Made by a program: the position numbers and the translations under genes | The notes under the pieces: model-generated | Told to the model about the DNA's origin: nothing | Databases searched by the model: none | What the model saw: the letters and a program-made list of their open reading frames with translations, nothing else | NCBI GenBank assembly: GCA_041666845.1 | Contig: JBAYGC010000005.1 | Location: forward strand, 584-64,583 | Reading direction: 5' to 3' | DNA: 64,000 nucleotides | Source of the DNA: Patescibacteria group bacterium | GTDB taxonomy: Bacteria; Patescibacteriota; Patescibacteriia; UM-FILTER-42-10 | In this document: positions 6,001-39,854 of the stretch, one piece after another | Position numbering within the stretch: position 1 is the first letter of the stretch | Layout: every line of letters starts with the position of its first letter

Positions 6001-6876
6001 TTGCCGAGAGTTGAAGAATTGTTTGAAGCTAGACCTGTGAAGAAGGCGGCGATCATCAGTGAAATTGACGGACAAGTCAGTATTACGGAGCAGGATAAAC
6101 AGAAGATGATCAAGGTAATTGCGGAAAAACCGGTTACCGAGAGTTATGATATTGAAAAATTATTCAAAAAGGTAGGCTTTACCATCAAAGTAAAAAATGG
6201 CGCTTCGGTTGATAAGGGTGATGTGATTGCAGAAAATGATAAAGGTAAAGTGATTAAAGCGAAGGCACAAGGAAAAGTAACAGTTGAAAAATCAATCGTT
6301 AAGATTTCCGGCACTGAAGAAAATGTTTATGAATATGCTATTCCGATCGGCTTCTCGTTATGGGTTAAGGATGGGGACTTGGTTACATCCGGTCAGCAGT
6401 TAACTGAAGGCAGTCTTAATATCCAGGAACTGTATCGTCTGCGGGGCAAGGATGCCGTCCAGAGGTATATTATTAAAGAAATTCAGTATATTTATTCCTC
6501 ACAAGGTCAGAAACTAAACGATAAGCATATTGAAATAATTGTCCGCCAGATGTTCTCGCGTTATTATGTGAAAAATGCCGGTGACACGGATCTGCTGTCC
6601 GGTGATATTATTTCGGAAGACCAGTTGCTCGAGGCCAATATTGCACTCAAGAAGGGTGAAAAGAAGGCGTCCGGTGAGAACCTGCTATTGGGTATTACCA
6701 AAGCTTCGCTTTCCACTGACAGCTTCCTGGCAGCAGCTTCATTCCAGGAAACAGCCCGCGTGCTGATTGATGCTTCAATTTCAGGGAAGGTTGACAAATT
6801 AAGAGGATTGAAAGAGAATGTAATTATCGGAAAACTGATTCCAGTAGGAACCGGATTCAAGCCGAAAGTGAAGTAA
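3013..6876 (+). CDS. rpoC: DNA-directed RNA polymerase subunit beta'
   Basis: 1287 aa. Zn-binding CxxC motifs are present, plus [12 protein letters not shown] catalytic motif and trigger-loop region. Directly downstream of rpoB. Confidence 0.97.
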
Positions 6877-6900
6877 CGGATTATAAAAAAATATATAAAC

Positions 6901-6931
6901 GGGCGCCCTCGATTTAGGCGCCTGTTTTGTT
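6901..6931 (+). terminator. Rho-independent terminator after rpoC
   Basis: GC hairpin GGGCGCC-CTCGATTTA-GGCGCC followed by TGTTTTGTT. Confidence 0.6.
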
Positions 6932-7003
6932 CCAAAAGCTTCATATAATACTTTGACGAATACCCAATATTCGTGTTAAAATGAGTAATCAATCAGTATC
7001 AAG

Positions 7004-9268
7004 ATGGCAACAACTCAACCCAAAAAGCGAATAAAAAAAGAACATCTCGAAGAAGAGAAACAACCCATTTTAAACCCCGGGACACGCCGAGGGATTATTG
7101 TTGTTTCCCTGTTTGTGGTTGCGGCGATCAGTATCTTAAGCTTCTTTGAGCTGGCCGGCAGTGTCGGCAATTATCTTGATCAGCTGCTGAGAGTTATTTT
7201 CGGTTGGGGCTCATTCTTGTTTCCGATCATCCTTGCCGTTTTCGGTTATATGCTTATTTTCCCGGACAAATATTCCCTGAAGGCGTCCAATTATCTGGGT
7301 GTGTTCTTACTGTTACTGGCACTGCTCGGGATCATGCATCTTTTTGTCGGACAGGAAGCGGCGGTAGAAGCGATTGACGAGGGGCGCGGCGGCGGCTATT
7401 TGGGTTTAGTTATCAGCTTGCCACTCTTAAAAATTATGGGAATCTGGGCGACATCAATCGTACTGGTTGCCTTATGTTGCATTGCTGTTTTGATCGTATT
7501 TGCCACTTCAATTAACCGGCTGGTGGAAGGCGGCAGTGTCATCGGTTCGGTGATGCTCCGGATCAGGGAATTTTTCCGCAAAATTAACTACCGAGTTTCG
7601 GAAAGCCGCATGGAAAAAGAAGCCAGCGCGGAAGTGGAGGAAGAGCGTTCTTTTAGCAGAAAAACTATTACTCAAAAAGCAGATTTGGAAGACGGAAAGG
7701 AAGAAGTAATCAGCGCGGTTAATGAAGACGTGGAAACGGGTGATCAGATGAAAATTTTTAATAAGAATAAACACCGGCCGAAAATCGACATCCCGATTGA
7801 TTTGCTCGAGGGTACTTCCGCCAAACCGACCAGCGGTGATATAAATTTGAATAAAGAAAAGATCAAAAAGACCTTACAGAACTTCGGCATTGAAGTGGAG
7901 ATGGGTGAAACAAACGTCGGTCCGACCGTGACACAATATACGTTGAAACCGTCCGAGGGTGTGAGAATTTCACAGATCGACACACTGCAAAATGATATTG
8001 CGCTGGCCTTGGCGGCCCATCCGATCAGAATTGAGGCGCCGATTCCGGGCAAATCACTGGTTGGTATTGAAGTGCCGAACCAGAAAGTAGCGGTGGTTAA
8101 GCTGAAAGAAATTATTCAGAGCGAAGCGTTCAAAAAGCGGGAGTCAGATCTGAATATTTCCTTAGGCAAGGACGTTTCCGGTTTTCCGTGGGTAGCGGAC
8201 ATGGGTAGCATGCCCCACCTTTTAGTGGCCGGTGCCACGGGTTCCGGGAAGAGTGTCTGCATCAATTCAATTATTATCAGCCTCTTGTATCAGAATTCAC
8301 CGGATAAGCTAAAACTGATTTTAGTTGATCCGAAACAAGTGGAACTGACCATCTATAACGGTATACCACATCTGCTGACGCCGGTAATCACTAAGGCGGA
8401 TAAAACAATCAATGCGCTTAAATGGGCTGTTGCCGAAATGGAAAGAAGATTTGAATTGCTGTCACAAACCGGCCAGCGGAATATTAAAGGATTTAATGCC
8501 GGAGTTGCAGAAGGACTGCCATATATCGTAATTGTGATTGACGAACTGGCGGATCTGATGAGCGTGAATGCACCGGAAGTGGAAGGATCTATTATCAGAC
8601 TGGCGCAAATGGCCAGAGCGGTAGGTATCCATCTGGTAGTAGCCACGCAACGGCCGTCAGTGGATGTCATTACCGGTCTGATCAAAGCGAATATCACTTC
8701 CCGCATTGCCTTTACGGTTGCTTCGGGCACCGATTCCAGAACTATCCTGGATTTCGCCGGGGCGGAAAAACTCTTAGGTAGTGGTGATATGCTTTACGTA
8801 TCCGCCCAACTTTCCAAACCGAAACGTCTGCAGGGTGCGTATGTTACAGAACGGGAGATCCGGAATATTGTGGACTTTTTGAAAGAAAAAGGCGAACCGG
8901 AATATAACGAAGAAATTATTACCAGGCACGGAGCCCATGTCGGTGAAAAGGGCGAATCACTTTCGGAAGATGACGATGTGTTGGTGGACGATGCCCAGGA
9001 AATTATTTTGGAATCACAAAAAGCCTCCGCTTCTTTTCTGCAGAGGCGTATGCGGATCGGCTACGCGCGTGCCGCCCGCATTTTGGATATTTTGGAAGAG
9101 CGGGGAATTATCGGACCCGCGGACGGAGCTAAACCGCGTGATGTATATGTCAAAGATAAGGATGATATTGATATCATTTCTGATCCGGATAACCAAGATG
9201 AGGAAGAGGTTGTCGAGTCAGAATCCACCGAAGAAGAAATAGCAGAGGAAAAACAGAATAAACTTTAA
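7004..9268 (+). CDS. ftsK: DNA translocase FtsK/SpoIIIE
   Basis: N-terminal TM helices. Motor domain with Walker A GATGSGKSV and a gamma-domain (QRRMRIGYARAARILDILEERGIIG). Confidence 0.93.
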   Translation: MATTQPKKRIKKEHLEEEKQPILNPGTRRGIIVVSLFVVAAISILSFFELAGSVGNYLDQLLRVIFGWGSFLFPIILAVFGYMLIFPDKYSLKASNYLGVFLLLLALLGIMHLFVGQEAAVEAIDEGRGGGYLGLVISLPLLKIMGIWATSIVLVALCCIAVLIVFATSINRLVEGGSVIGSVMLRIREFFRKINYRVSESRMEKEASAEVEEERSFSRKTITQKADLEDGKEEVISAVNEDVETGDQMKIFNKNKHRPKIDIPIDLLEGTSAKPTSGDINLNKEKIKKTLQNFGIEVEMGETNVGPTVTQYTLKPSEGVRISQIDTLQNDIALALAAHPIRIEAPIPGKSLVGIEVPNQKVAVVKLKEIIQSEAFKKRESDLNISLGKDVSGFPWVADMGSMPHLLVAGATGSGKSVCINSIIISLLYQNSPDKLKLILVDPKQVELTIYNGIPHLLTPVITKADKTINALKWAVAEMERRFELLSQTGQRNIKGFNAGVAEGLPYIVIVIDELADLMSVNAPEVEGSIIRLAQMARAVGIHLVVATQRPSVDVITGLIKANITSRIAFTVASGTDSRTILDFAGAEKLLGSGDMLYVSAQLSKPKRLQGAYVTEREIRNIVDFLKEKGEPEYNEEIITRHGAHVGEKGESLSEDDDVLVDDAQEIILESQKASASFLQRRMRIGYARAARILDILEERGIIGPADGAKPRDVYVKDKDDIDIISDPDNQDEEEVVESESTEEEIAEEKQNKL

Positions 9269-12358: not shown

Positions 12359-12916
12359 TTATGTTCCTAAAATATCGTCATCGAGAATATGATCCAGTTT
12401 CTCGTCCAGTTCCTCGAGCGATACTTTCTTCGGTTCCTTCTTAACCGGTTTTACTTCCTTTTCTTCTTCTAGCGGTTTCGGATCGGCAAATGAAGGTCTC
12501 GGTACGGCAGGTGCTTCCACTTTGGCGGCGACCGGTTCTTCGGCTGCGAAGATTGGTTTCACTTCCGCCGGTTTCTCAATTCTTCTTTCCTTGGCTTCTT
12601 TCGCCCGTTTCTCCGCTCTGGCGATTGCCAAAACGTCCCGGACGGTTACGATGTGTCTGGTTACTTCGTCCATAATCGCCAGTTCTTTTTCAATCTTGCG
12701 CAGATTGGCGCCCGGCAGATCAAAATCAACCTGCACGTAAAAACCATAGCGCTGGTTTTTGATCGGGTAGGCCAGTTTTTTCTTGCCCAGGTTGTTGTCG
12801 CGGACGATCACGCCCTCGTTTTTCTTGATCAGTTCGAACACTTTGTCGCGAACAAAAGGAATCTCTTCCTCAGAAATTTTGGAAGAGACAATTACTAAAA
12901 GCTCGTAATTTTGCAT
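12359..12916 (-). CDS. rpsF: 30S ribosomal protein S6 with Lys/Glu/Pro-rich C-terminal extension
   Basis: The S6 core starts at internal Met (MQNYELLVIVSSK...). An AGAGG RBS sits 8 nt upstream of ATG at 12916. The longer 323-aa ORF in the track has a non-S6 N-terminus and was rejected. Operon order is rpsF-ssb-rpsR. Confidence 0.85.
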   Translation of the reverse strand: MQNYELLVIVSSKISEEEIPFVRDKVFELIKKNEGVIVRDNNLGKKKLAYPIKNQRYGFYVQVDFDLPGANLRKIEKELAIMDEVTRHIVTVRDVLAIARAEKRAKEAKERRIEKPAEVKPIFAAEEPVAAKVEAPAVPRPSFADPKPLEEEKEVKPVKKEPKKVSLEELDEKLDHILDDDILGT

Positions 12917-13037
12917 ATTTTGACCTCTTTCTTGCCTGTCCATCTTGAAATGGTCGTCTATTTCCAAGACATGGGATTGAGCAGGCATTAATTTATAAGT
13001 TGTAAAGTTCCCCGCAATCTTACCAAAGGCAGGGGAA

Positions 13038-13150
13038 GGTGTCAACCCCCACACCCATACATGGGTGTGGGGGTTGCGTGTTGCGTTCCGCTTTCCAAAA
13101 AACCCGATTTCTTTAACCCCAAACCGGTTGCTTGTCGTAGCACGCGCGGT
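13038..13150 (+). repeat. R-module repeat (perfect 14-bp-stem hairpin CAACCCCCACACCC/GGGTGTGGGGGTTG, then AAAAAACCCGATTTCT...TTGCTTGTCG)
   Basis: Homologous copies occur at 17497-17545 (partial), 18727-18845 and inverted at 26110-26190. Confidence 0.7.
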
Positions 13151-13320
13151 GATTTGTTTTATAACGTTTCGGGTTAGTCGATGTCTGGCGATAGAGGAGT
13201 ATGGGCGGAGGTTTGCTAATAAGCAAACCGGAGTCAGATATTCGCTGTTATATGGTGTACGTATTTTCCTTTGATTTGGGACAAGCAAGTCTTTCAAAAA
13301 AGTATTATGAATTTCGTTTT

Positions 13321-15081
13321 TTACCACCAAGCTAGTCTTTTCATATGTTCTTCGTATGCAGTGGAATTTTTTTGAAATTCGGTAAAAGACTTATTGAATA
13401 GGCCTGCAGATATTGGGCCCCAATGATCTTTGCTTTTATCCGCTTCATCTAACATCATTTTGAAAGGATTTTCACCGAAGCGTCTTTGATATTTCCAGGC
13501 AAATCTACCAGGAGGCCCCCAACCACTTTGATTGACGTGTGAATACTCAAGGGCAAAAAGTATTTCAAAATAATCGAATAGATATTCGTAATTTCTTCCT
13601 AAGAAAAGTAAGTCTTCTAAAGTTGGCTGTAAAGTAGTAAACAGTTGCTCGCTTCTCGGCGCATAATGCCTTTCTCGACCAGGTATCCACTTAAATGATT
13701 CATGGATTTCTGACAAATTTGCCCCCACTGGAGTAACAAGTGCTTCACTTTGATCCGACAGGGGCTCTGGTCTTACTGGAGTTTCAAAAATAATCTTTAG
13801 CGCACCATAATTCTGACTGGACAGGGCAGTAATACCTGCCGAATACATTAGTAGTTGAATTGGATACCAAGTAAATCGAAGCCATAGCACCGTTCCTGAT
13901 GAACCTTTATCGGCTTCAGCCAAACGTGTAAATATTTTATTGAGCTGTTGTAATTGTTCGCTGTTACCCCATTTAGCCAACAAGATAGAGATAACTTGTA
14001 GGTCTTTCGATAATTCTTCGTATTCACTCAAACGTTGAATAAATTGATCCTTTTGAGCAGGGATTCCCTGTACTGGGAAATTACGTAAATCAGTTTCATC
14101 CAAAAAATGGCGAATGTGCTTTGAAACAAAATCATCTAATTTGATCTTGTTTGAAGGAACTGATAGCAATTCTTTGATTGTGTCGGCGATCGGTGTTTTT
14201 GGTTCAAATGGAGTCTCAATTTGAGGTGATGTATTCACTAAGATATCAACCTCTCCAGGCTCACCCTTTTCAGATGATTCGGGCTGAGGGGAGGAATTCT
14301 TTTTTTGTTCTAATACAGAGGTGTCAAAAATAAATTCGCCGTCACCATCCACAAAACCATAATGAGGAGTTTGGTGTGAGTATTGATCATTAGCAACATG
14401 GTCAAACACGTATGCCATTACGCCACTTGCCGAGATAATGCCGTCTTTTGTTGAAGCTGCCCCATCCAAAGCGTCTAGTAAGTGAGAAGTAAAAATCGAA
14501 TGGTCCGGTCTTGTTCCGTTCCCATCTGCGACTGTCTCATTAGCTTTACCGGCAGTAAGTAGTTGGCGTGAATATCGTTTTAGCATGTCTCCAATAAAGC
14601 GCATACTGCCTAGTGATGGGGTACGAAGAAAGGCTAATCCCCCATAGCACGCATCCATAAGAAAGAATATGTGCTTGGCAGGAATTAAATCAGAATTTCT
14701 AGTAAATTCGTCCCATCGAATTAATGTATCAATTTCATCTGGTTTGCCTTCGGCTGGAACAAGATAGCCGACCTCACCTCTTTTTCCAGAAACAGTATGG
14801 CCATGACCAGCATAAAATACTATCAACCTGTCGTCGGGGAGAGTCTTTTTAAAATCAAGAAATGATTTATTGATGGTATCCTTTGTTGCGTCTTTGTCGA
14901 TTAGTAAGGAAATATTCGATTTTGGAAACTGAAACTTTTTTTCTAAAATATCGGCAACTGCTTCGGCATCACTTTTTGCATACCCTAAAGGAGGGGCAAA
15001 TTTGTATTGATTAATACCAATTATTAATGCCCAGCTATTTGTATATTCTGGTTGGTAGACTAGTTTTTCTTGGGAGGACAT
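13321..15081 (-). CDS. Caspase-like peptidase (C14/CHAT-type His-Cys dyad) with ~330-aa uncharacterised C-terminal domain
   Basis: The N-terminal ~250 aa have caspase-fold spacing: ALIIGINQY...VFYAGHGH (catalytic His)...FLMDACYGG (catalytic Cys). The C-terminal half has no recognisable motifs. Confidence 0.75.
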   Translation of the reverse strand: MSSQEKLVYQPEYTNSWALIIGINQYKFAPPLGYAKSDAEAVADILEKKFQFPKSNISLLIDKDATKDTINKSFLDFKKTLPDDRLIVFYAGHGHTVSGKRGEVGYLVPAEGKPDEIDTLIRWDEFTRNSDLIPAKHIFFLMDACYGGLAFLRTPSLGSMRFIGDMLKRYSRQLLTAGKANETVADGNGTRPDHSIFTSHLLDALDGAASTKDGIISASGVMAYVFDHVANDQYSHQTPHYGFVDGDGEFIFDTSVLEQKKNSSPQPESSEKGEPGEVDILVNTSPQIETPFEPKTPIADTIKELLSVPSNKIKLDDFVSKHIRHFLDETDLRNFPVQGIPAQKDQFIQRLSEYEELSKDLQVISILLAKWGNSEQLQQLNKIFTRLAEADKGSSGTVLWLRFTWYPIQLLMYSAGITALSSQNYGALKIIFETPVRPEPLSDQSEALVTPVGANLSEIHESFKWIPGRERHYAPRSEQLFTTLQPTLEDLLFLGRNYEYLFDYFEILFALEYSHVNQSGWGPPGRFAWKYQRRFGENPFKMMLDEADKSKDHWGPISAGLFNKSFTEFQKNSTAYEEHMKRLAWW

Positions 15082-15249
15082 CTTTTAAAAAACGAAATTT
15101 ATAATGATTTTTTGACGGAGCGATAGCTTGAATGAAGGCATATATGCCTTATAATTTGTTTATTATACGAAGCTTTCTGTATCAAGCCCCGATTCCAGTC
15201 TAGCACAATTGCTAATGGTAGGTAATTTGGATGAGTGGGTTAAATAATA

Positions 15250-15597
15250 TTACAGGTCTAAATCGTCAACAATAATTGCACCTGTGACATCTCGTGTATC
15301 TTGTTTTAGTGATTCCAGGTCCTTTTCATCAATGCCTTGTTTCATATCAGTATAGATTTTCTTCATATCCTCACGACTAACTTTTAGCGCTTCCGCAAGT
15401 GCCAATAGCTTTATATCGTTACCGATTCGTGCCACTCTTAGCATTTTCCTGTTAAACTCAACTTGGCGACTGATTTGAAAGCCAACCCAAAGTATGCAGA
15501 GGAAGAAGTAGAACATGAACCATTTAATATCTTCTATAAAGATAATTATGACTAATCCAATGACAGTGAAGAATATGAATTCATGGAAATTTTTCAT
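15250..15597 (-). CDS. Small membrane protein (2 TM plus a charged C-terminal tail)
   Basis: 115-aa ORF. Two N-terminal hydrophobic helices, then a soluble Lys/Asp/Glu-rich region. Confidence 0.5.
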   Translation of the reverse strand: MKNFHEFIFFTVIGLVIIIFIEDIKWFMFYFFLCILWVGFQISRQVEFNRKMLRVARIGNDIKLLALAEALKVSREDMKKIYTDMKQGIDEKDLESLKQDTRDVTGAIIVDDLDL

Positions 15598-15662
15598 AGA
15601 ATAGTTGTTAGTTAATATTATTTAGTTCACGAACCGGCTAGCCCGTGTTAGCTGATGTACTG

Positions 15663-16319
15663 TTAATACTTCAGTAACCCCGCTTTTTTTAAAGCCCTGG
15701 ATATTTCTCTATGATCTTTATCGATCGCTTGTCTCTTAACAAAGTTTGGATTTTTCTTGCATCGTTTTTCTATTATCTTGATTAAGTCTTTGAATACACC
15801 CCGTACCTCATCGAGACTTTTTTTGCTGCTTGGAAATCTTTTACCATGAAATGAGAAGTCGTCTCCAATAAAGTTACCAAAATCAGAAATATGGACACGT
15901 TTTTTTCGGCTTGGTGTTAAAAAGCCAAGACATCGGTCTTCAATATGCTCCAGATGGTTCCTGATAGTTTTTATCTCAAATATATCCTTGATTCTGGTTT
16001 CAAGACTTTTAATTTCAACATCGCCTGTTTCCTCATACAAATTATGTAACAGTTTGTAAATCTTATCTATACAAATAAAGAAGAAATGAGTATCGCATGC
16101 AAGGTAGGTATGTAGAAATTTGTTCTTCCTGCTAAAATTTCCACCATGCGCTCTAGCGATGAACCTTCTCATTTCAGATCTGTGTTTTTCTAATCGTCTT
16201 ATCTCTAAGATTGACCCATTCACATAATTCTGAATGTTATTGAGCAGCAAAAAAAGCCGTGTGGATTTTTTAGCATTCGTATCAAGGTAGGGATAGTATT
16301 TGGTTATTGAATCAAACAT
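15663..16319 (-). CDS. Hypothetical protein with a HEPN-like R-x4-H motif (RNHLEH)
   Basis: 218 aa. IKTIRNHLEHIEDRCLG matches the Rx4-6H signature of HEPN RNases. No other recognisable motif. Confidence 0.35.
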   Translation of the reverse strand: MFDSITKYYPYLDTNAKKSTRLFLLLNNIQNYVNGSILEIRRLEKHRSEMRRFIARAHGGNFSRKNKFLHTYLACDTHFFFICIDKIYKLLHNLYEETGDVEIKSLETRIKDIFEIKTIRNHLEHIEDRCLGFLTPSRKKRVHISDFGNFIGDDFSFHGKRFPSSKKSLDEVRGVFKDLIKIIEKRCKKNPNFVKRQAIDKDHREISRALKKAGLLKY

Positions 16320-16486
16320 GATATTAACAGTATTTCTTCTAACTTTTTATTTTGCTATCTTCACCGTGAAATTAGCATAATTCTCTATAGTTAGCAATAA
16401 TCACGAACAACCCCCACCTTTTTGCCAAAAGCGGGGAGGGAAAGGGAGGAAATTACTCTATTTAAACAAAACTCTAATGATACCCG

Positions 16487-17419
16487 CTATTGGTTGTCTT
16501 TTTTCAGTATCAGAAACAACTGGGCCAGGATCAACAGCCCGAAGAAAATCCCTAGGTTCACTCCGGCGGGGATGGCGAAGGCCGGCACGATTTTTTCCAT
16601 TTCATATAACGGCAGATCCATCTGATCAAACAAAGCATTGGTTGAGTGTCTCAGAAAAGTTATGCTAAAAGTTAGAAACAGTAGAAGATAGTATACTGCC
16701 AATCCGAATCTGGCAAAGCGACGGTTGTGATAAAAAAGATAAGACAGAACTAATATCGCGAAGATTGCAAAGCTCAAAAGGTAAGTACCCTGTGCCTTAA
16801 ATATGAAATTGCCAAATAGGGGAAAAGCGCCTTGGAGGAAGATGAAAAGAAAAAATACAGAAACCCAGAGATAGTTCAGCAGTATGATCGCAAGTTTATT
16901 GGTCGAAAGGTTGGCGAAATAACTGTCTGAATTGGTAGTGTTAAACAATTGCTTGGTTTTTTCGTTTATGTAAAATTTTATCAAAAAGTAAGGTATGGCA
17001 ATCAAAAAGAATGAAATAAGAATTATGATGGTCAGCGATTGATAGGGCGCTATGGTTTTAAGCAGATTAAAGGAAAGCAGAATACTGGCTGTTGTTATGC
17101 TTCCAATAATAATAAGTTTTTTTAAGAATGCAATAGACAGATTGTATCCCCATTTTTTGAATCGGAAATTCCCGATCCCGAGGGGGATGCCAAAAAGTGC
17201 AAAGAAAAAATATGCCATTACATTGAGCACTATAAATGCAAACATCAGACTGCCAAAGCCAAAGCCTTCGTAGTGAAAATTTCCTCCTTCAGCAAATGCA
17301 TAAAAGGATGTGAATTCGGCAGGGACCAGCAACATCGAAAACAACCCGCCGACCAGCAGGACAAGTCCGATAGTTTTTATTAACAAGACTCTTTTGTTTG
17401 ATCCCGGTTTTGTCGCCAT
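16487..17419 (-). CDS. Polytopic membrane protein (~9 TM), function unknown
   Basis: 310 aa, with hydrophobic helices throughout. Confidence 0.6.
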   Translation of the reverse strand: MATKPGSNKRVLLIKTIGLVLLVGGLFSMLLVPAEFTSFYAFAEGGNFHYEGFGFGSLMFAFIVLNVMAYFFFALFGIPLGIGNFRFKKWGYNLSIAFLKKLIIIGSITTASILLSFNLLKTIAPYQSLTIIILISFFLIAIPYFLIKFYINEKTKQLFNTTNSDSYFANLSTNKLAIILLNYLWVSVFFLFIFLQGAFPLFGNFIFKAQGTYLLSFAIFAILVLSYLFYHNRRFARFGLAVYYLLLFLTFSITFLRHSTNALFDQMDLPLYEMEKIVPAFAIPAGVNLGIFFGLLILAQLFLILKKDNQ

Positions 17420-17496: not shown

Positions 17497-17630
17497 CAAA
17501 AAACCCGATTGCTATAATTCCAGACTAGTCGCTTGTCGGAGAGGGTTCTAAATAATTGTGGATTCCCGGGTCCTGCCTCGCCTTGATCCGGCGGAGCGGC
17601 GGCAAGGCGGGCAAGCCCGAGAATGACAGT
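17497..17630 (+). repeat. Partial R-module (17497-17545) plus P-module variant (17560-17630: GGATTCCCGG...GGCAAGCCCGAGAATGACA)
   Basis: Shares both ends with P copies at 18864 and 25975. The inner core is divergent. Followed by TTGACA at 17637. Confidence 0.6.
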
Positions 17631-18845: not shown

Positions 18846-18863
18846 CGTTTTCTAAAAACTTAT

Positions 18864-18965
18864 GGATCCCCGGATCCCCGGCCGCCTAACTGCCGTTAGG
18901 CAGTGGGGCAGGCAAGCCCGAGGATGACAATCAAATAACAAGTCATTCCCGCGAAAGCGGGAATC
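18864..18965 (+). repeat. P-module: ~100-bp MITE-like element with terminal inverted repeats GGATCCCCGG...CGGGAATCC
   Basis: Near-identical to 25975-26098 (59-bp core GGATCCCCGGCCGCCTAACTGCCGTTAGGCAGTGGGGCAGGCAAGCCCGAG[G/A]ATGACA). An internal perfect 7-bp hairpin GCCTAAC-TGCC-GTTAGGC overlaps an alternative CTGCC-GTTA-GGCAG stem. Confidence 0.75.
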
Positions 18966-19076
18966 CATGGAATTAATTTGATGCTGATATTAGCTAAAAT
19001 TAGCCCATTTAGTATTGACCCCGTTAGAGGAGTTCCTCTAAGCGGGGTTGACAAAAACCCAGTTTAGGTGTATGCT
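18966..19076 (+). promoter_or_regulatory. Q-module with outward sigma70-type promoter (TTGACA-17-TATGCT) driving 19231..19803
   Basis: The element ATTAGCTAAAATTAGCCCA...TTGACCCCGTTAGAGGAGTTCCTCTAAGCGGGGTTGACAAAA contains a 12-bp inverted repeat and ends in TTGACA at 19048. The -10 TATGCT is at 19071. An inverted copy lies at 25866-25985. Confidence 0.6.
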
Positions 19077-19230
19077 GTCAGGTTTCATGGTTCATTGAAA
19101 TATCACTGCGTATATTGCCGTGGCGTCCAGATTAGAAAGAAGATCAGTCTAATTTGACCGCTCCGGCAATGTTGCCAAGCATGACATCCTAATGTCCAGT
19201 ATGGATTCCAAAGCCATGAAGGAGATTTCC

Positions 19231-19803
19231 ATGAAGAAGTCGTACATGACTCAGGACGACATCTACGTTGCCCAGGCGTGGAAGAGTCTGGCGAAGAAGC
19301 TGTTTCCTTGCCAGATCGTCGTGACGCTGGTCATGGTGACGCTGACCTACATCGCCCGGCGCTTCATCAATCACCACTATTTCGATCATGTGGTGACGGA
19401 TGCTGTCGCTGGCAACATCCCCAACGTGGTGATCGCGCTCGTAGCGTTCATCTTCGCCGGTGTGTTCGCGGTGGCTGTCGCGACCAACATCGCGTTCAGG
19501 AACGCACCGATTCGTACGATCACGCTCGTTCTGCTCACGTTCCTGGTACCTGCTGTGATCGGCGCCTTCTCCAGCTTCTGCTCGCACATCTATCTCCGGC
19601 CGGCGGATATCGTGTATGATTTCATTCCGGCGGTTCTGCTCATCGGGGTCTGGTGGTACACCAGCAACGCGCTCGATGAGGCCAGCGGATCGAACTTCGG
19701 TCAGAGCAAGGTCGCGAAAAGGATTCGAAACAGGATCGAGTACGCCTGTATCGGACAGTTCGCGATCTTCATGATTCTGATGGCCTACGTCATCGGGATT
19801 TAA
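19231..19803 (+). CDS. Polytopic membrane protein (5-6 TM), compositionally foreign (GC ~58%)
   Basis: SD AAGGAG lies 6 nt upstream of ATG at 19231. The track ORF starts 13 codons earlier, without an SD. The sequence is hydrophobic throughout. The antisense 211-aa ORF was rejected as a high-GC artefact. Confidence 0.65.
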   Translation: MKKSYMTQDDIYVAQAWKSLAKKLFPCQIVVTLVMVTLTYIARRFINHHYFDHVVTDAVAGNIPNVVIALVAFIFAGVFAVAVATNIAFRNAPIRTITLVLLTFLVPAVIGAFSSFCSHIYLRPADIVYDFIPAVLLIGVWWYTSNALDEASGSNFGQSKVAKRIRNRIEYACIGQFAIFMILMAYVIGI

Positions 19804-19954
19804 CTGCCCTTTTGACCTGAGCAAGTCCTAAGAAGTGCTCACCCGCCAGGTAACTGACGGGTTTTTTCTTTGCCAAAAAATATTAACCGATAATCAAAAA
19901 CAAGCGCGGTCAAACCCGCGCCTGCATTTATATTTTTTACAAACAGTTATTTGA

Positions 19955-25616: not shown

Positions 25617-25865
25617 GGCTTTCTCCTTCGGCCAGAAGTAGGTGCACATGTGTCTCGGGAATCGAGACGGTCATGTTTTCAAGGAGCGGATCTCCTTGTT
25701 GGAGCCCGCGATCACTTACAGTGATCCTAGGCTCAAACAAAAAGCTTTCAGTGTACACATGGAGAGACTCTGAAAGCGCTGAATGTTGACATAGCTCTCT
25801 CCTCTGTCCTCCGTAGTGCCGCGAATGCGGTACGAAGGAGTGACAGAATTCTATGTTAACAGGCC

Positions 25866-25985
25866 AGTATACACCCAAAAGGGGGTTTTGTCAACCCCGT
25901 TAGAGAAACTTCTCTAACGGGGTCAAGACTGTGTGGGCTAATTTTAGCTAATGTTAGCAATTAATTAATTTGATGGATTCCCGGA
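25866..25985 (-). promoter_or_regulatory. Inverted Q-module with promoter TTGACA-17-TATACT pointing leftward toward 24561..25616
   Basis: Its reverse complement aligns with 18966-19056. -35 is at 25889-25894 and -10 at 25866-25871, both on the minus strand. Confidence 0.6.
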
Positions 25986-26098
25986 TCCCCGGCCGCCTAA
26001 CTGCCGTTAGGCAGTGGGGCAGGCAAGCCCGAGAATGACAAATAATACACCCCACCCCTGTCATTCCGGAATCCGACGAGAGGAGGATATCCGGAATC
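25975..26098 (+). repeat. P-module copy (MITE-like, TIR GGATTCCCGG...CCGGAATC)
   Basis: Core identical to 18864-18925 except one base. The right-end hairpin ATTCCGG...CCGGAAT is present. Confidence 0.75.
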
Positions 26099-26109
26099 TA
26101 TCTTAATCC

Positions 26110-26190
26110 GCTCAAGCGCTCCGACAAGCGACCTGTCTAGGATTATAGTAATATGGTTTTCTGGAGAACTGAACCCCACCCTTAACCTTT
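26110..26190 (-). repeat. R-module copy in inverted orientation, abutting the uvrC start
   Basis: The reverse complement (CTCCAGAAAACCATATTACTATAATCCTAGACAGGTCGCTTGTCGGAG) aligns with 17497-17545 and 18800-18845. Confidence 0.55.
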
Positions 26191-33161: not shown

Positions 33162-33198
33162 AATATACAAAGAGTGGTGGTAATAAAGAAAAAAATAT

Positions 33199-33216
33199 GC
33201 CGAAGTGGTGAAACTG
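33199..33216 (+). repeat. Direct duplicate of the first 18 nt of tRNA-Leu (GCCGAAGTGGTGAAACTG), 108 bp upstream of the intact gene
   Basis: Exact match to 33307-33324. It is followed by a structured segment with overlapping 9-bp and 13-bp hairpins. Confidence 0.7.
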
Positions 33217-33306
33217 CCATGAACCACTAAAGGGTTCATGGCTATCACGTACCCTTTAGTGGTACATGATGGTATGGAATAAAATTAATAATCATTGAAA
33301 CAATCT

Positions 33307-33393
33307 GCCGAAGTGGTGAAACTGGTATACACGCAGCGTTCAGGACGCTGTGGGCGCAAGCCCGTGGGAGTTCAACTCTCCCCTTCGGCACCA
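33307..33393 (+). tRNA. tRNA-Leu (anticodon CAG), type II with long variable arm
   Basis: Manual fold: acceptor GCCGAAG/CTTCGGC. D-stem GTG/CAC. Anticodon stem CAGCG/CGCTG with loop TTCAGGA. Variable arm GGGCGCAAGCCC. T-arm GGGAG-TTCAACT-CTCCC. Discriminator A plus an encoded CCA. Confidence 0.85.
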
Positions 33394-35480: not shown

Positions 35481-38400
35481 ATGAACAAAGCTATGCAAAG
35501 TCTCAAAAAGATCGCCGGGTTTGGCGTATTAGGTTTTTTTGCGATTACCTTGCTTCTCTCGGGAGCAAATATCGCTTTGGCAGAAGATATGCCAAGCCCC
35601 CCGGCCGACACACGTATAACCAGCTTCACAGTTACTCCGGTATCAGCGGCATTGGGGGCGACGACTACATATAACGTCAGTCTTACTTTGAACACGACCG
35701 TAGATGAAATACCGCTTTGGATCGGTGGAACTGGAGTACCGCTAGGAATAAGTTTTAATACTAGCGGTGGCTGTCCACCGGAAGTAGATTGGCGAGCCTG
35801 CAGAGTTGATTTATCGAATGCCTCAATCTCTGGTTTGGCAGGAAGTGTGACGGGAGATACAAATGAAGATAATGTGTATTTTATCGCCGACAATGCACTA
35901 GCAGCCGGCACAATTAATTTTTCTATTACGGGTGTAAAGAATCCGACTTATGGTGGTGGATTATTCAACGGAAAAATACAAATCCAGTCTCCGCAGGTTG
36001 CTGAGGATGAAATGTGGCCAGAGGGAACATCTCCAAACTTTATTTTAGGAGCCGTTTCTTTTTATGGTAAGGTTTTGACCCCCAGTGGAGATCCGATTAA
36101 TGGAGTTGGTGTAAATGTCCGGAATGAAGATTTTTCTTTTAATTATGGTACGGGCGCGTCTCCGGATGGAAGCTTTGCTTTACCGTCAACCGGAATGACG
36201 GCCGGCATGAAATATTATATAGAAATATGGTTGCCAAGCGGCACACAGGGGTATATTGCACCAAGTGCAATACAAAAAACATATACCGGAACTGTACAGA
36301 ATGTCGGCACGATAACTTTAGCCGTAGCTGCAAAAACAATTACGGGTACGGTTAGATATGATACTGGCGGGGCAGTTACCACGGCCAATATTAGGGTTTG
36401 GAATAATAGCGGATCAAGTGCTCAGGCGGATGTAAATGCCAGCGGGCAATATACATTAACCATCGGTGGCGGAAATTGGGAGATGATGGTTGATAAACAA
36501 TATAATGAGAACGGCCCAGTGGAAACGGATTGGGTATACAATGAGAATAAAAAGCAGATTTCGTTTGCTGATAACAATAGCAGTGAATCGCAAACAATGA
36601 ATTTTACTGTTCAGAAAACAAACTCGATAATCAAAGGTTGTGTGAAAACTCCGGATGGACACTTTCTACAGGGCGGATGGGTTGATATTAGAACCGGTGA
36701 CGGTCAAGGTAACGGGGCAGGTATCAATGGACAGAATGGTTGTTTTACCGCCAACGTCAATAATGGCAGTTATAAACTGCAGATCTTTCCGGATAACCAG
36801 AATCCTGATATGGCAAGGTTTTATCTTCCGGAGATGAAAGTAGACATCGCTGACGGACAGACTATTAATCTTGGTAATCTGGTTATGAAAGAAAAAACTT
36901 CCCAGATCAAAGGGAAGGTCATGCTGGAAGACGGTACGGGTGTAGGAGATATACGCGTCGGTTGTTGGCAGAATAATGCGTCGGGTTGGGGTGAATCGGT
37001 TTCCGCGTTTGATGGAACTTATACGCTCTGGCTACAACCGGGCCAATGGCAATGTCAGGCTCAGACCAGTACGGATTCGGATTATATTCCAATCAATGCC
37101 GGCGGGAAAACCAGTATGTATGAGCTAAAAGATAGCACAACCGTCTCGGGGGTAAACCACATTGTTAAATTGGCGGATGCCACGTTAGTTGTTAAAACTG
37201 TCGGTGAAGACGGCAAGGCAATCACCGGCAATGCTTATGGTTGGGCTTATGCTCGCGTAAAAGGGGCAGGCTTTGAGAAAGGATCAGAATTCGGCGGCAA
37301 TCTTGACCGGGGAACGGCTACAATCAAACTGATCGGTGGTAGTACATTTATTGTGGGTGCTTATATGCCTGCTGATCAGGGAGGATATTTGCTCGAAAAA
37401 GAAGTTGAGATAACCGTGCCGAAAAATTCTTCAAAAGAGACAACCTTAACTTTAGTTTTACCGGATGCTGAAATATTTGGATTTTTGAAAGATCAGGATG
37501 GAAAAGTGGTAAAGGGGGTTGAAGCGGAAATATACGCTAATATTGCGGAGAATACGGGTCCGGGCAGTAATCCGGGTGCTTTTACCAGAGTTAATCCTGA
37601 AGATGGAAGTTATAGTCTAAAGGTGCGTGGTGGTAATAAATATGTATTAGGATATTGGTTCAATATGAATGATGAATTTGTCCAAACTCATCCGGACTTT
37701 ACCCCGTTTACTGTACCAGTGGGTGGAAAAGTTCCAAAAATCATTACCGCTTTTCGTGCCAATGCGTCTATTGATGCTATGTTGCTTGATCCGGATGGAA
37801 AGAGTATTGATTTTGGATTCGTATGGTGTTCCAACCAGGTCGCCTTAAAAGATAAAGTCAAAGGTGATTTCGAAGGAGGTAAAGTAATTGAAGCCGGTGG
37901 GGATGTAATAGGCGGTAAGGCACATATTCCATTAATTTTCGGTGAATACGAATGCGGAGCAGGTATGAAATCCGGGGACAGTACCTATATGCCTCCGGAG
38001 AATAAGGTAGTTACAGTAAATTCCGGTGAGTCACAGAAAATTACATTACAATTCCGTGAAGCTGACGCAACTTTATCCGGTTCGGTAAAGCTTGAAGATG
38101 GCAGTGATGTACCATATGGTTGGTGTCATGCCTGGCAGAATGAAGGCGGTTTTTCCGGTGCTGAAGCATTCGACGGGAAAGCCAGTATTCCACTGACGAT
38201 CGGAACATGGTACGTGGGATGTGATTCAAAGATTTCGGGTGATGATAAATTTTATCGGTCTGAAGAGACAAGAGTGGTTGTATCTGAAAAAGGTGAGCTA
38301 AGTAAAAACTTTGTCCTGGCGGAAGCGGCTTTCAATCTACCGGAAGGTCTGACTGAAGTTTTCGATTCCACTATCCAGAAGGTAATTAATTTGCCGGATG

Positions 38401-39854
38401 GCACATCATTGAACATACCAGCAAACGCGCTAGCAACCGAAGGGAATGTAACGCTCATTGCTTCTCCGAATGTAAATGTGTTCCAGACTTCCGATACCAA
38501 GATTCCATTTTATGCCTGGGATTTTGAAGCATTGGACGCAAGTTCTCAGCTTATTTCGGAATTCAGCAGCAATGTAACAATTTCTATTCCTTACGATCCG
38601 TTAGTTCTTGCGGAAATGGGAATTGATGAAAATAATCTGGTGGCCAAGTATTATGATGATACGGCCGGTGCCTGGAAGCTGCCTACCGGTGTTACTGTTG
38701 ATACGGAGGGTAATATTATAGTTGTTCAGGTCAATCATTTTACCAACTACGCGATAACTACCAATGAAACAGGGGTGGGGAATCTCTCAGGCTCCAATGG
38801 ACCTTTCAATTTGGTGGCAACACCAATGTCAGAAGGCGGACCGCAGGTCGGAGTCTTTGATAAAGACGGCAATATGATCGCCACTTGGTTTGCCTATTCA
38901 TCCAGTTTAAGAATGGGTATGACTGTAGAAGTTGCGGATCTGGACGGCGACGGCAATCCGGAGATAATCACTATTCCTGGTGAGGGATTCGACGCTCAAA
39001 TACGCGTATTCGATCAGAACGGCAATGTCTTGAGCCAATTCATGGCATATCCGGCCGGATTCCGAAACGGCGTCAGCGTAACCGCATACGATCTGGACGG
39101 TGACGGCGAAATGGAAATTATCACTGTGCCGAAAGATGCAACTGCCGATGTAAAAGTATTTGATCGTAATGGAAATCTGCTGGCCCGATTCAATGCCTAT
39201 GGATCCAGGTTCATGATGGGTGCTGAAGTGGCAGCCATGGATCTGGACGGTGACGGCACCGGTGAAATAGTAACTTATCCGACTACCGGTTCAGGACAAA
39301 TTCGTGTGTTCGACAAAGACGGCAATGCGTTGTCGCAATTCAACACTTACGGGAATGGTTATCGCAATGGTGTACGTGTAACTCTTTCCGATTTGAACGG
39401 TGACGGTACAGTTGAAATTATCACATCACCTAAAAATGCCGCAGCGCACGTAAAGGTATTCAATAAAGACGGCGGATTGTTAACCCAATTTATGGGTTAT
39501 GCTTCGACCTTTAGAGGTGGAGTGAAAACATATACCGGTGATGTTGACGGCAATGGAATTAATGAAATCGTATTACTGCCTGATACCAATGGTTCCGCTC
39601 AAGCCAGGGTTTTTGACAAGGACGGCAACCTGCTTTCCCAATTCTTCGCCTATCCTTCAGCCATCAGAGGATCGTTCTCTGCGGCTGTGGGAGATCTGGA
39701 CGGCGACGGAGTGGCGGAAATCAGTTTCGGACCGGGTACCGGACTGGGACCGCAAGTGCGTGTGTTTGATAAGGACGGCAATGCGCTGTCACAGTTCTTC
39801 TCACTGCATTCCGGGTACCGTGGTGGGATCAATCTGTCATTAATCAACCAATAA
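35481..39854 (+). CDS. Large secreted surface protein: signal peptide, Ig/carboxypeptidase-regulatory-like beta-sandwich repeats, C-terminal FG-GAP beta-propeller repeats
   Basis: 1457 aa with an N-terminal signal/TM. The C-terminal ~520 aa carry about 10 repeats of ~47 aa with the DLDGDG/DVDGNG Ca-binding motif (VFDKDGN...F.AY...R.G..V...DLDGDG..EII). Confidence 0.8.
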   Translation: MNKAMQSLKKIAGFGVLGFFAITLLLSGANIALAEDMPSPPADTRITSFTVTPVSAALGATTTYNVSLTLNTTVDEIPLWIGGTGVPLGISFNTSGGCPPEVDWRACRVDLSNASISGLAGSVTGDTNEDNVYFIADNALAAGTINFSITGVKNPTYGGGLFNGKIQIQSPQVAEDEMWPEGTSPNFILGAVSFYGKVLTPSGDPINGVGVNVRNEDFSFNYGTGASPDGSFALPSTGMTAGMKYYIEIWLPSGTQGYIAPSAIQKTYTGTVQNVGTITLAVAAKTITGTVRYDTGGAVTTANIRVWNNSGSSAQADVNASGQYTLTIGGGNWEMMVDKQYNENGPVETDWVYNENKKQISFADNNSSESQTMNFTVQKTNSIIKGCVKTPDGHFLQGGWVDIRTGDGQGNGAGINGQNGCFTANVNNGSYKLQIFPDNQNPDMARFYLPEMKVDIADGQTINLGNLVMKEKTSQIKGKVMLEDGTGVGDIRVGCWQNNASGWGESVSAFDGTYTLWLQPGQWQCQAQTSTDSDYIPINAGGKTSMYELKDSTTVSGVNHIVKLADATLVVKTVGEDGKAITGNAYGWAYARVKGAGFEKGSEFGGNLDRGTATIKLIGGSTFIVGAYMPADQGGYLLEKEVEITVPKNSSKETTLTLVLPDAEIFGFLKDQDGKVVKGVEAEIYANIAENTGPGSNPGAFTRVNPEDGSYSLKVRGGNKYVLGYWFNMNDEFVQTHPDFTPFTVPVGGKVPKIITAFRANASIDAMLLDPDGKSIDFGFVWCSNQVALKDKVKGDFEGGKVIEAGGDVIGGKAHIPLIFGEYECGAGMKSGDSTYMPPENKVVTVNSGESQKITLQFREADATLSGSVKLEDGSDVPYGWCHAWQNEGGFSGAEAFDGKASIPLTIGTWYVGCDSKISGDDKFYRSEETRVVVSEKGELSKNFVLAEAAFNLPEGLTEVFDSTIQKVINLPDGTSLNIPANALATEGNVTLIASPNVNVFQTSDTKIPFYAWDFEALDASSQLISEFSSNVTISIPYDPLVLAEMGIDENNLVAKYYDDTAGAWKLPTGVTVDTEGNIIVVQVNHFTNYAITTNETGVGNLSGSNGPFNLVATPMSEGGPQVGVFDKDGNMIATWFAYSSSLRMGMTVEVADLDGDGNPEIITIPGEGFDAQIRVFDQNGNVLSQFMAYPAGFRNGVSVTAYDLDGDGEMEIITVPKDATADVKVFDRNGNLLARFNAYGSRFMMGAEVAAMDLDGDGTGEIVTYPTTGSGQIRVFDKDGNALSQFNTYGNGYRNGVRVTLSDLNGDGTVEIITSPKNAAAHVKVFNKDGGLLTQFMGYASTFRGGVKTYTGDVDGNGINEIVLLPDTNGSAQARVFDKDGNLLSQFFAYPSAIRGSFSAAVGDLDGDGVAEISFGPGTGLGPQVRVFDKDGNALSQFFSLHSGYRGGINLSLINQ

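Follow-up and report, generated by a model that had tools for sequence, protein, structure and literature searches.

SIR2, TIR, caspase and Ser/Thr kinase are known as the domains that kill in the systems Thoeris, DSR, pAgo, type IV Thoeris and Stk2/PD-T4-6, and the Ser/Thr kinase defences of the PD-T4-6/Stk2 type are encoded by a single gene. ThsE, the type IV Thoeris effector, is a caspase-like protease with an unknown C-terminal sensor; it is activated by N7-cADPR made by a TIR protein, is arginine-specific and cleaves indiscriminately (10.1101/2024.10.24.620036). Here, four minus-strand genes, named A to D, are described in a stretch of 64,000 nucleotides (nt) from contig JBAYGC010000005.1 of a Patescibacteria group bacterium (referred to as the window). 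The product of gene A (13321..15081, 586 amino acids (aa)) consists of a caspase domain and a C-terminal domain of the PDC-S65 type, and is a caspase-bearing variant of PDC-S65, an uncharacterised, computationally proposed single-gene defence family of the PADLOC database. With a probability of roughly 0.6, A is a self-contained, single-polypeptide candidate immune (phage-defence) protein, in which a sensing domain is joined to a caspase effector, and it is a reasonable experimental lead. A first-pass annotation of the window had proposed a defence module formed by all four genes; the defence reading is retained for A as a solo candidate, but not for the four-gene module.

Caspase domain of protein A

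The N-terminal half of A is predicted to be a catalytically competent cysteine protease of the caspase/metacaspase type with His93 and Cys145 as catalytic residues. Pfam PF00656 (Peptidase_C14) matches aa 17-230 with 57.5 bits (cut-off 21.4), and the domain as a whole (aa 17-250; 14332..15033, minus strand) has a caspase-haemoglobinase fold. The sequences YAGHGH (aa 90-95) and MDACYGG (aa 142-148) contain His93 (codon 14803-14805) and Cys145 (codon 14647-14649), both of which are invariant in all 47 full-length homologues compared, in line with the intact caspase-type dyad noted in the first-pass annotation. An identical protein is on record as a ‘caspase family protein’ of a Patescibacteria group bacterium, encoded on a 225-kb contig. 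Asp143, two residues ahead of the catalytic cysteine, is invariant as well. Since an Asp at this position (Cys-2) is also found in the paracaspase and in metacaspases, a basic P1 specificity and cleavage after Arg or Lys are suggested for A, which would be a property common to A and ThsE.

Compared to metacaspases, the paracaspase MALT1 and bacterial orthocaspases (MEROPS C14), A has neither the p10 calcium-binding insert nor Ig or death domains and instead bears a unique C-terminal helical domain. Other caspase-like systems were considered and rejected. For a CHAT or Craspase protein, neither a CHAT match nor partner genes were found, nor was the combination of CHAT with TPR and a neighbouring gRAMP gene. 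A gasdermin-linked caspase system was dismissed because B, C and D have no gasdermin match in Pfam or PADLOC. The NCBIfam model caspase_w_EACC1 scores 64.7 on A, below its cut-off of 140.

C-terminal domain of protein A

The all-alpha C-terminal domain of A (aa 298-586; 13324..14190, minus strand) had been described as free of recognisable motifs. This holds for Pfam, NCBIfam and PDB, none of which returned a match, but not for PADLOC, where the models PDLC05061 and PDLC05060 of the candidate PDC-S65 match with E-values of 5.8e-40 and 1.2e-27, respectively. In the PDLC05061 alignment, aa 300-585 of A lie on profile positions 309-591, but nothing in A matches positions 1-308, the SIR2 part of the model, and A thus lacks a full-length PDC-S65 match. 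When plasmids were searched by tblastn, the same C-terminal domain turned up in a ‘SIR2 family protein’ (585 aa) of Bradyrhizobium septentrionale (plasmid pBs5S5a). Since this protein contains Pfam SIR2_2 and matches PDC-S65 over the full length (positions 12-588, E=1e-207), PDC-S65 can now be annotated as SIR2 plus the shared C-terminal domain. A and PDC-S65 therefore have approximately 285 homologous C-terminal residues; each is encoded by a single gene for about 585 aa, and both are found in defence-island or mobile-element contexts. The difference lies in the N-terminus, which is a SIR2_2 NADase-type domain in PDC-S65 and a Peptidase_C14 caspase in A.

A profile search with the C-terminal domain in 1.84 billion proteins yielded 2,813 representative clusters, 629 of them at E<=1e-30. 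About half of the best 150 matches are solo proteins of approximately 295 aa, and most of the others have the length of the caspase fusion (about 580 aa), few of which were scanned for their N-terminal domain. Besides the SIR2, caspase and solo forms, the domain is fused behind a Ser/Thr kinase (Pkinase; P0314, P0355 and P0374), behind an ATPase of the CbiA/ParA type (P0361), behind a weak TIR-like domain (P0375) or behind unassigned N-termini. Copies of the domain taken from six architectures align collinearly and have 17 invariant positions (K303, I313, L315, F335, Y354, G396, Y406, P407, Y413, G416, L428, S477, E506, P523, G525, R526 and G560). With 51% identity, the domain of A is as near to a kinase-fused copy as to caspase-fused copies, a closeness suggesting that the N-terminal module was exchanged recently. 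The kinase halves match the PD-T4-6 and mad6 models, and these paralogues support the logic of a sensor plus a swappable effector. They are related to A through the C-terminal domain, which the PD-T4-6 models exclude, while A itself has a caspase instead of a kinase. In the structure model of A, the C-terminal domain (approximately 290 aa) is all-helical with a helical-repeat-like fold and has no enzyme match.

Neighbourhoods of A homologues

Full-length homologues of A are numerous (1,547 matches; 48-69% identity among the 120 listed). They were found in Patescibacteria metagenomes and Bradyrhizobium chromosomes, on a Pseudoalteromonas replicon (one homologue) and on IMG/VR viral contigs (three). 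Every neighbourhood inspected differs from the others and is rich in defence or mobile-element genes, the company typical of defence genes. Among the genes beside A homologues are those for an NgoFVII-type restriction enzyme, a LexA-methylase fusion and Vsr; an HTH-Panacea toxin-antitoxin, GIY-YIG and Fic; a reverse transcriptase and AAA_5; a serine recombinase, a rolling-circle Rep, T5orf172 and an EcoRI-type methylase; a large methylase and a short pAgo with Hypoth_Ymh; a Schlafen-like protein and a DEAD helicase; as well as an integrase, AlpA, Gp49, IS481 and AAA_15.

A solo copy of the C-terminal domain on another contig (L008, 5001-5888) lies between an MmeI-type restriction-modification gene and a TIR gene, with an integrase and an OLD-like gene near. 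The TIR gene (6193-7101), which starts approximately 300 nt downstream of the solo copy, matches the PADLOC PDC-S66 and ThsB models, and the two proteins may form a two-gene arrangement. Such a pair would fit a signalling system similar to type IV Thoeris, in which A would be the effector and its C-terminal domain would bind a nucleotide second messenger from a distant TIR protein or cyclase. This is considered quite improbable for A, since no TIR or cyclase gene is located beside it in the window or in nine other contexts of full-length homologues, and since the fusions of the domain to SIR2, kinase and TIR-like modules fit a self-contained sensor better. In the window, B, C, D and rpsF are without a TIR match, so that the adjacent TIR gene expected for a ThsE-like protein is missing.

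Variable island upstream of rpsF

An open reading frame (ORF) check of the window placed all four minus-strand genes at the coordinates given in the first-pass annotation. They are separated by intergenic gaps of 65-168 nt; rpsF, ssb, rpsR and efp follow downstream of the block, the first three directly, in agreement with the ribosomal-protein operon annotated there before, and a PadR/DUF1048 pair is located upstream. The G+C content is low in all four genes (0.35-0.41 inside the block versus approximately 0.45-0.47 in both flanks), and repeats are plentiful around the block, as had been noted previously. Window positions 13144 down to 2365 are collinear with a related Patescibacteria genome (L046; rpsF 96% identical, DNA approximately 86%). 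The synteny ends precisely at a 45-nt repeat (13096-13140), beyond which L046 continues upstream of rpsF with a homologue of window positions 19218-19878. In the 10 kb of L046 fetched upstream of rpsF, no A, B, C, D, PadR or DUF1048 gene was found, and a more distant relative (L047) has other cargo again at the same position. Because both relatives differ here and synteny breaks at the repeat, the block is regarded as cargo specific to this lineage, placed in a variable hotspot with dispersed repeats at its borders.

The 45-nt repeat is promoter-like, with the core CGACAAG...TATAGC, and is also present in L046. In the window, one copy is located upstream of rpsF (13096..13140), a second upstream of D (17497..17541) and a third, inverted copy upstream of uvrC (26119-26163). 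The direct copies flanking the block were considered as an att site, which was rejected in favour of a dispersed repeat because of the third copy and the promoter-like sequence. A second dispersed repeat is found at 17606, 18907 and 26018.

The absence of gene A from the syntenic site in the close relative L046 bears on the question whether the protein has an immune function at all. Like many orthocaspases and metacaspases of bacteria, A might be a regulatory or developmental protease, one that rides on mobile DNA. The C14 proteases of bacteria are numerous and have mostly unassigned roles, plasmids carry many unrelated ‘caspase family proteins’, and the defence role of the A family is a computational proposal. 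Yet, in addition to the missing gene in L046, the spread of A across phyla is patchy at 50-69% identity with variable, defence-type neighbours, and its C-terminal domain is common to a PADLOC defence candidate and to classic abortive-infection effector domains. A non-immune role of A is therefore considered unlikely.

Proposed function of protein A

In the proposed mechanism of A as a self-contained immune protein, sensing or regulation would fall to the constant helical domain, and the exchangeable N-terminal domains (SIR2, caspase, kinase and TIR-like), all of them established killing modules in abortive infection, would act as effectors. The constant domain would sense infection through a phage protein or a small ligand and would switch on the variable N-terminal effector, probably via oligomerisation; this step is proposed because caspases need dimerisation. 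The active caspase would then degrade cellular or phage proteins, whereupon growth would stop and the infection would be aborted.

Several points weigh against this interpretation. The polarity of sensor and effector is read from the architecture, and the constant domain contains many invariant charged or aromatic residues and could itself be enzymatic. Solo copies are abundant, which indicates that the domain does not depend on a fused effector to act. The model of A has a predicted template modelling score (pTM) of 0.58, so that the interdomain geometry is uncertain. PDC-S65 is a computational candidate only, and no paper mentioning it was found in a literature search; the PADLOC ‘embedded’ preprint and a language-model preprint do not mention a caspase, and the PDC systems tested in a cold-seep paper do not include S65. 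The defence role of the A family is likewise a candidate role derived computationally, the neighbourhood evidence comprises 10 contexts read by eye, and such a protease may serve a Patescibacteria host in other ways.

The first two of these points could also be taken for a reversed polarity, with the constant C-terminal domain as effector or toxin and the N-terminal caspase, kinase, SIR2, TIR-like and ParA-like domains as regulators or sensors. While an active site is possible in view of the 17 invariant residues, including K303, S477, E506 and R526, and the domain works alone in about half of the best 150 representatives, its helical-repeat-like fold has no enzyme match, and the PADLOC matches as well as established knowledge identify SIR2, TIR, caspase and Ser/Thr kinase as killing modules. 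A reversed polarity is judged to be rather improbable. The type IV Thoeris-like, the non-immune and the reversed-polarity alternatives are all less likely than a sensor-caspase immune protein.

Genes B, C and D

Gene C (15663..16319, minus strand) encodes a 218-aa protein of a family with 114 matches of approximately 220 aa, of which those with a name are mostly from Patescibacteria. The HEPN-like sequence R-N-H-L-E-H, read in this protein before, is present at R120 to H125, and R120, E124 and H125 are invariant in 52 family members. All invariant residues of the family are R42, R47, D76, H78, F81, D85, L90, I116, R120, E124, H125, I126, R129, C130, D146 and F157. A structure model (pTM 0.83; predicted local distance difference test, pLDDT, 89) shows a four-helix up-down bundle, a small hairpin and two further helices. 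The Rx4H motif lies at the N-terminal end of the fourth core helix (116-134), the position of Rx4-6H in HEPN domains. C was not recognised by the sequence libraries, had no significant profile match to any HEPN family, and in structure comparisons HEPN chains scored no better than designed helical bundles. Since the motif placement fits but no library recognises C, HEPN membership is plausible, not demonstrated. Similar to HEPN toxins (HEPN-MNT, AbiD/F-type and other Rx4-6H RNases), C has a four-helix up-down bundle and an invariant R-N-x-x-x-H, and it is probably a toxic RNase. It differs from these toxins by the additional invariant residues R42, R47, D76, H78, D85, C130 and D146 and by the lack of a conserved partner gene. 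Weak matches of Pfam Dredd_2nd (the second domain of caspase-8) in 13 of the 52 members (best E=1.5e-4) were taken as spurious helical matches; they are curious beside a caspase gene, though probably due to chance.

The closest homologue of C (95% aa identity) is encoded on a contig termed L045, where a nucleotidyltransferase gene follows (Pfam Aminoglyc_resit, 25.5 bits; cut-off 21), an arrangement reminiscent of HEPN-nucleotidyltransferase pairs. Upstream of C, a promoter-like piece (16359..16408, minus strand) has 84% identity to a piece upstream of another cargo gene in L046 (6100-6150; 51 nt), where it precedes the gene for a 192-aa protein.

Gene B (15250..15597, minus strand) encodes a protein of 115 aa with two hydrophobic segments within aa 1-42, and gene D (16487..17419, minus strand) a polytopic protein of 310 aa with approximately 8-9 such segments, according to a crude hydropathy scan. 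The previously annotated two and nine transmembrane segments are in agreement with these numbers. Neither protein had a family match in the sequence library scans, both are singletons at 90% identity clustering, and no viral relative of D was found in a scan of viral contigs. D is preceded by a copy of the 45-nt promoter-like repeat and followed by a terminator-like hairpin (16411-16437), and for this reason is probably transcribed as a unit of its own. Both B and D are membrane-protein orphans without a demonstrable link to A or C.

A single defence module, with the caspase as executor, the HEPN-like protein as a second effector and the membrane proteins as sensors or pores, is suggested by the common strand, close spacing and low G+C content of the four genes, by their joint absence from the L046 region described above, and by the established occurrence of protease and membrane-protein pairs in gasdermin systems. 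Co-conservation was not observed, however. In tblastn searches with A to D, only the anchor gene was found at each of 44 loci, i.e. no B, C or D homologue at seven A loci and three solo-domain loci, and no A, B or D homologue at 34 C loci. Two further A contexts inspected via gene tables contained no B, C or D either, and clustering of all neighbours of the 34 C homologues revealed no common partner, only local synteny among near-identical contigs. Moreover, C travels into unrelated flanks with its own repeat arms only, B is exchanged for the nucleotidyltransferase gene in L045, and D has its own promoter-like repeat and terminator-like hairpin. The module proposed in the first-pass annotation is thus largely refuted already by the missing co-conservation and is considered extremely improbable. 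A to D are a patchwork of independent cargo genes, neither one system nor a new multi-gene system, and C, which encodes a helical-bundle protein of the HEPN-like (Rx4H) kind, is a mobile gene in its own right.

Inverted repeats enclosing single genes

The most unusual feature of the region are inverted repeats clamping individual genes. The arm at the 3' end of A (13294..13323, 30 nt) overlaps the stop codon and is complementary at 27 of 30 positions to the arm at the 5' end (15086..15115), which stops 4 nt short of the ATG. B lies between two perfectly matched 12-nt arms (TAAATAATATTA; 15241..15252 at the 3' end and 15613..15624 at the 5' end), and C between 22-nt arms (15647-15668 and 16322-16343). 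The joined arms of A fold at -18.7 kcal/mol, and joined arms overall range from -17 to -34 kcal/mol. In an arm test over 51 genes of the window, the only outliers are A with a score of 21 and B with 12, against a median of 7 and a 95th percentile of 8.5.

The segment with C and its arms (15614..16347, minus strand) has 92% DNA identity to L045, with unrelated sequence on either side. Downstream of the C unit, the comparison of window 15224-15624 with L045 1300-1850 shows a gene-for-gene swap of B and the unrelated nucleotidyltransferase gene, which replaces B exactly between the two 12-nt arms; beyond them, identity is regained over 28 nt. The arms of the C homologue in L045 are located at 579-604 and 1260-1285. 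In a C homologue with 68% identity from another sample (L055), the 26-nt stem is kept (arms 265-290 and 945-970); compared to L045, three base pairs show compensatory changes on both sides, one is now G:T and one is broken. L045 contains a second, unrelated gene (121 aa) with its own 22-nt arms (28-49 and 460-481), which start with the same GTTnnnTGAAATG. A role of GTTnnnTGAAATG as a common recombination motif was dismissed, as it is not repeated elsewhere in the window. The inverted repeats are no family property either, since they are absent around A homologues with <=69% and C homologues with <=58% identity.

The arms might be an mRNA closing stem hiding the start region of toxic genes, the termini of cassettes, or invertible switches. 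Similar to the fbi element of hok, base pairing of the arms joins the 3' end of the transcript of a toxic gene to its 5' leader and start codon, in that the arms reach across the stop codon at one end and stop just short of the start codon at the other. Similar to integron or other mobile cassettes, the units are compact, contain a single gene, have repeat-defined ends and are exchanged at a hotspot, and in the case of C the arms move with the gene into unrelated contexts. In contrast to both, the arms differ per gene, and neither an antisense RNA nor an integrase, attC-type site or transposase turned up within approximately 13-31 kb. Integron gene cassettes in the strict sense were rejected, as there is no IntI integrase and the repeats enclose the ORF instead of forming a 3' attC palindrome (attC was checked by eye). 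No credible RNA family was detected in an Rfam scan of 12.3-19.3 kb, no recombinase among the ORFs from 13 to 31 kb, and nothing in scans of viral contigs for the arm sequences. Tentatively, A, B, C and the second gene of L045 could represent an undescribed class of single-gene units clamped by 12-30-nt inverted repeats. The repeats would serve either as a 5'-3' closing stem silencing the mRNA of toxic immune genes, similar to hok fold-back inhibition but acting on protein toxins such as a caspase, or as the ends of a new palindrome-directed cassette exchange stocking a defence hotspot in Patescibacteria, and one of the genes delivered would belong to an effector-swapped immune sensor family. 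This interpretation as a whole is regarded as doubtful.

Further features of the window

Several observations concern other parts of the window. The ribosomal protein S6 (12359-12919) has a C-terminal extension of approximately 90 residues past the Pfam S6 domain, which is rich in Lys, Glu, Pro and Ala. Two near-identical sequences of about 200 bp (18862-19084 and 25858-26041) bracket a segment of approximately 6.8 kb; they comprise a direct match (97% over 69 nt) as well as inverted arms of 98 nt and 42 nt. Within this segment, the G+C content reaches 0.54-0.56 at 24-26 kb, and the segment could be a further block of mobile or rearranged DNA. The 5' part of tRNA-Leu(CAG) (33307-33393) is duplicated 108 nt upstream (33181-33216 versus 33289-33324; 83% over 36 nt), which may be an integration scar or a degenerate second tRNA. 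An ORF for 1457 aa (35481-39854) contains about five tandem repeats of approximately 150 nt (38936-39797) encoding DLDGDG-type units, which suggests a large, repeat-rich surface protein.

Implications

Should A confer phage protection, it would represent a caspase immune sensor made of one protein, different from the two-gene TIR-caspase system (type IV Thoeris), from gasdermin systems and from CRISPR-linked proteases, and the shared C-terminal domain would define a large family of 2,813 representative clusters. One sensing module would then drive five killing chemistries (NADase, protease, kinase, TIR and ATPase), and the shared domain would provide a clean natural experiment for the identification of the sensed cue. 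The inverted-repeat arms with their covariation are a separate lead on the silencing or movement of toxic cargo genes in the tiny genomes of Patescibacteria.

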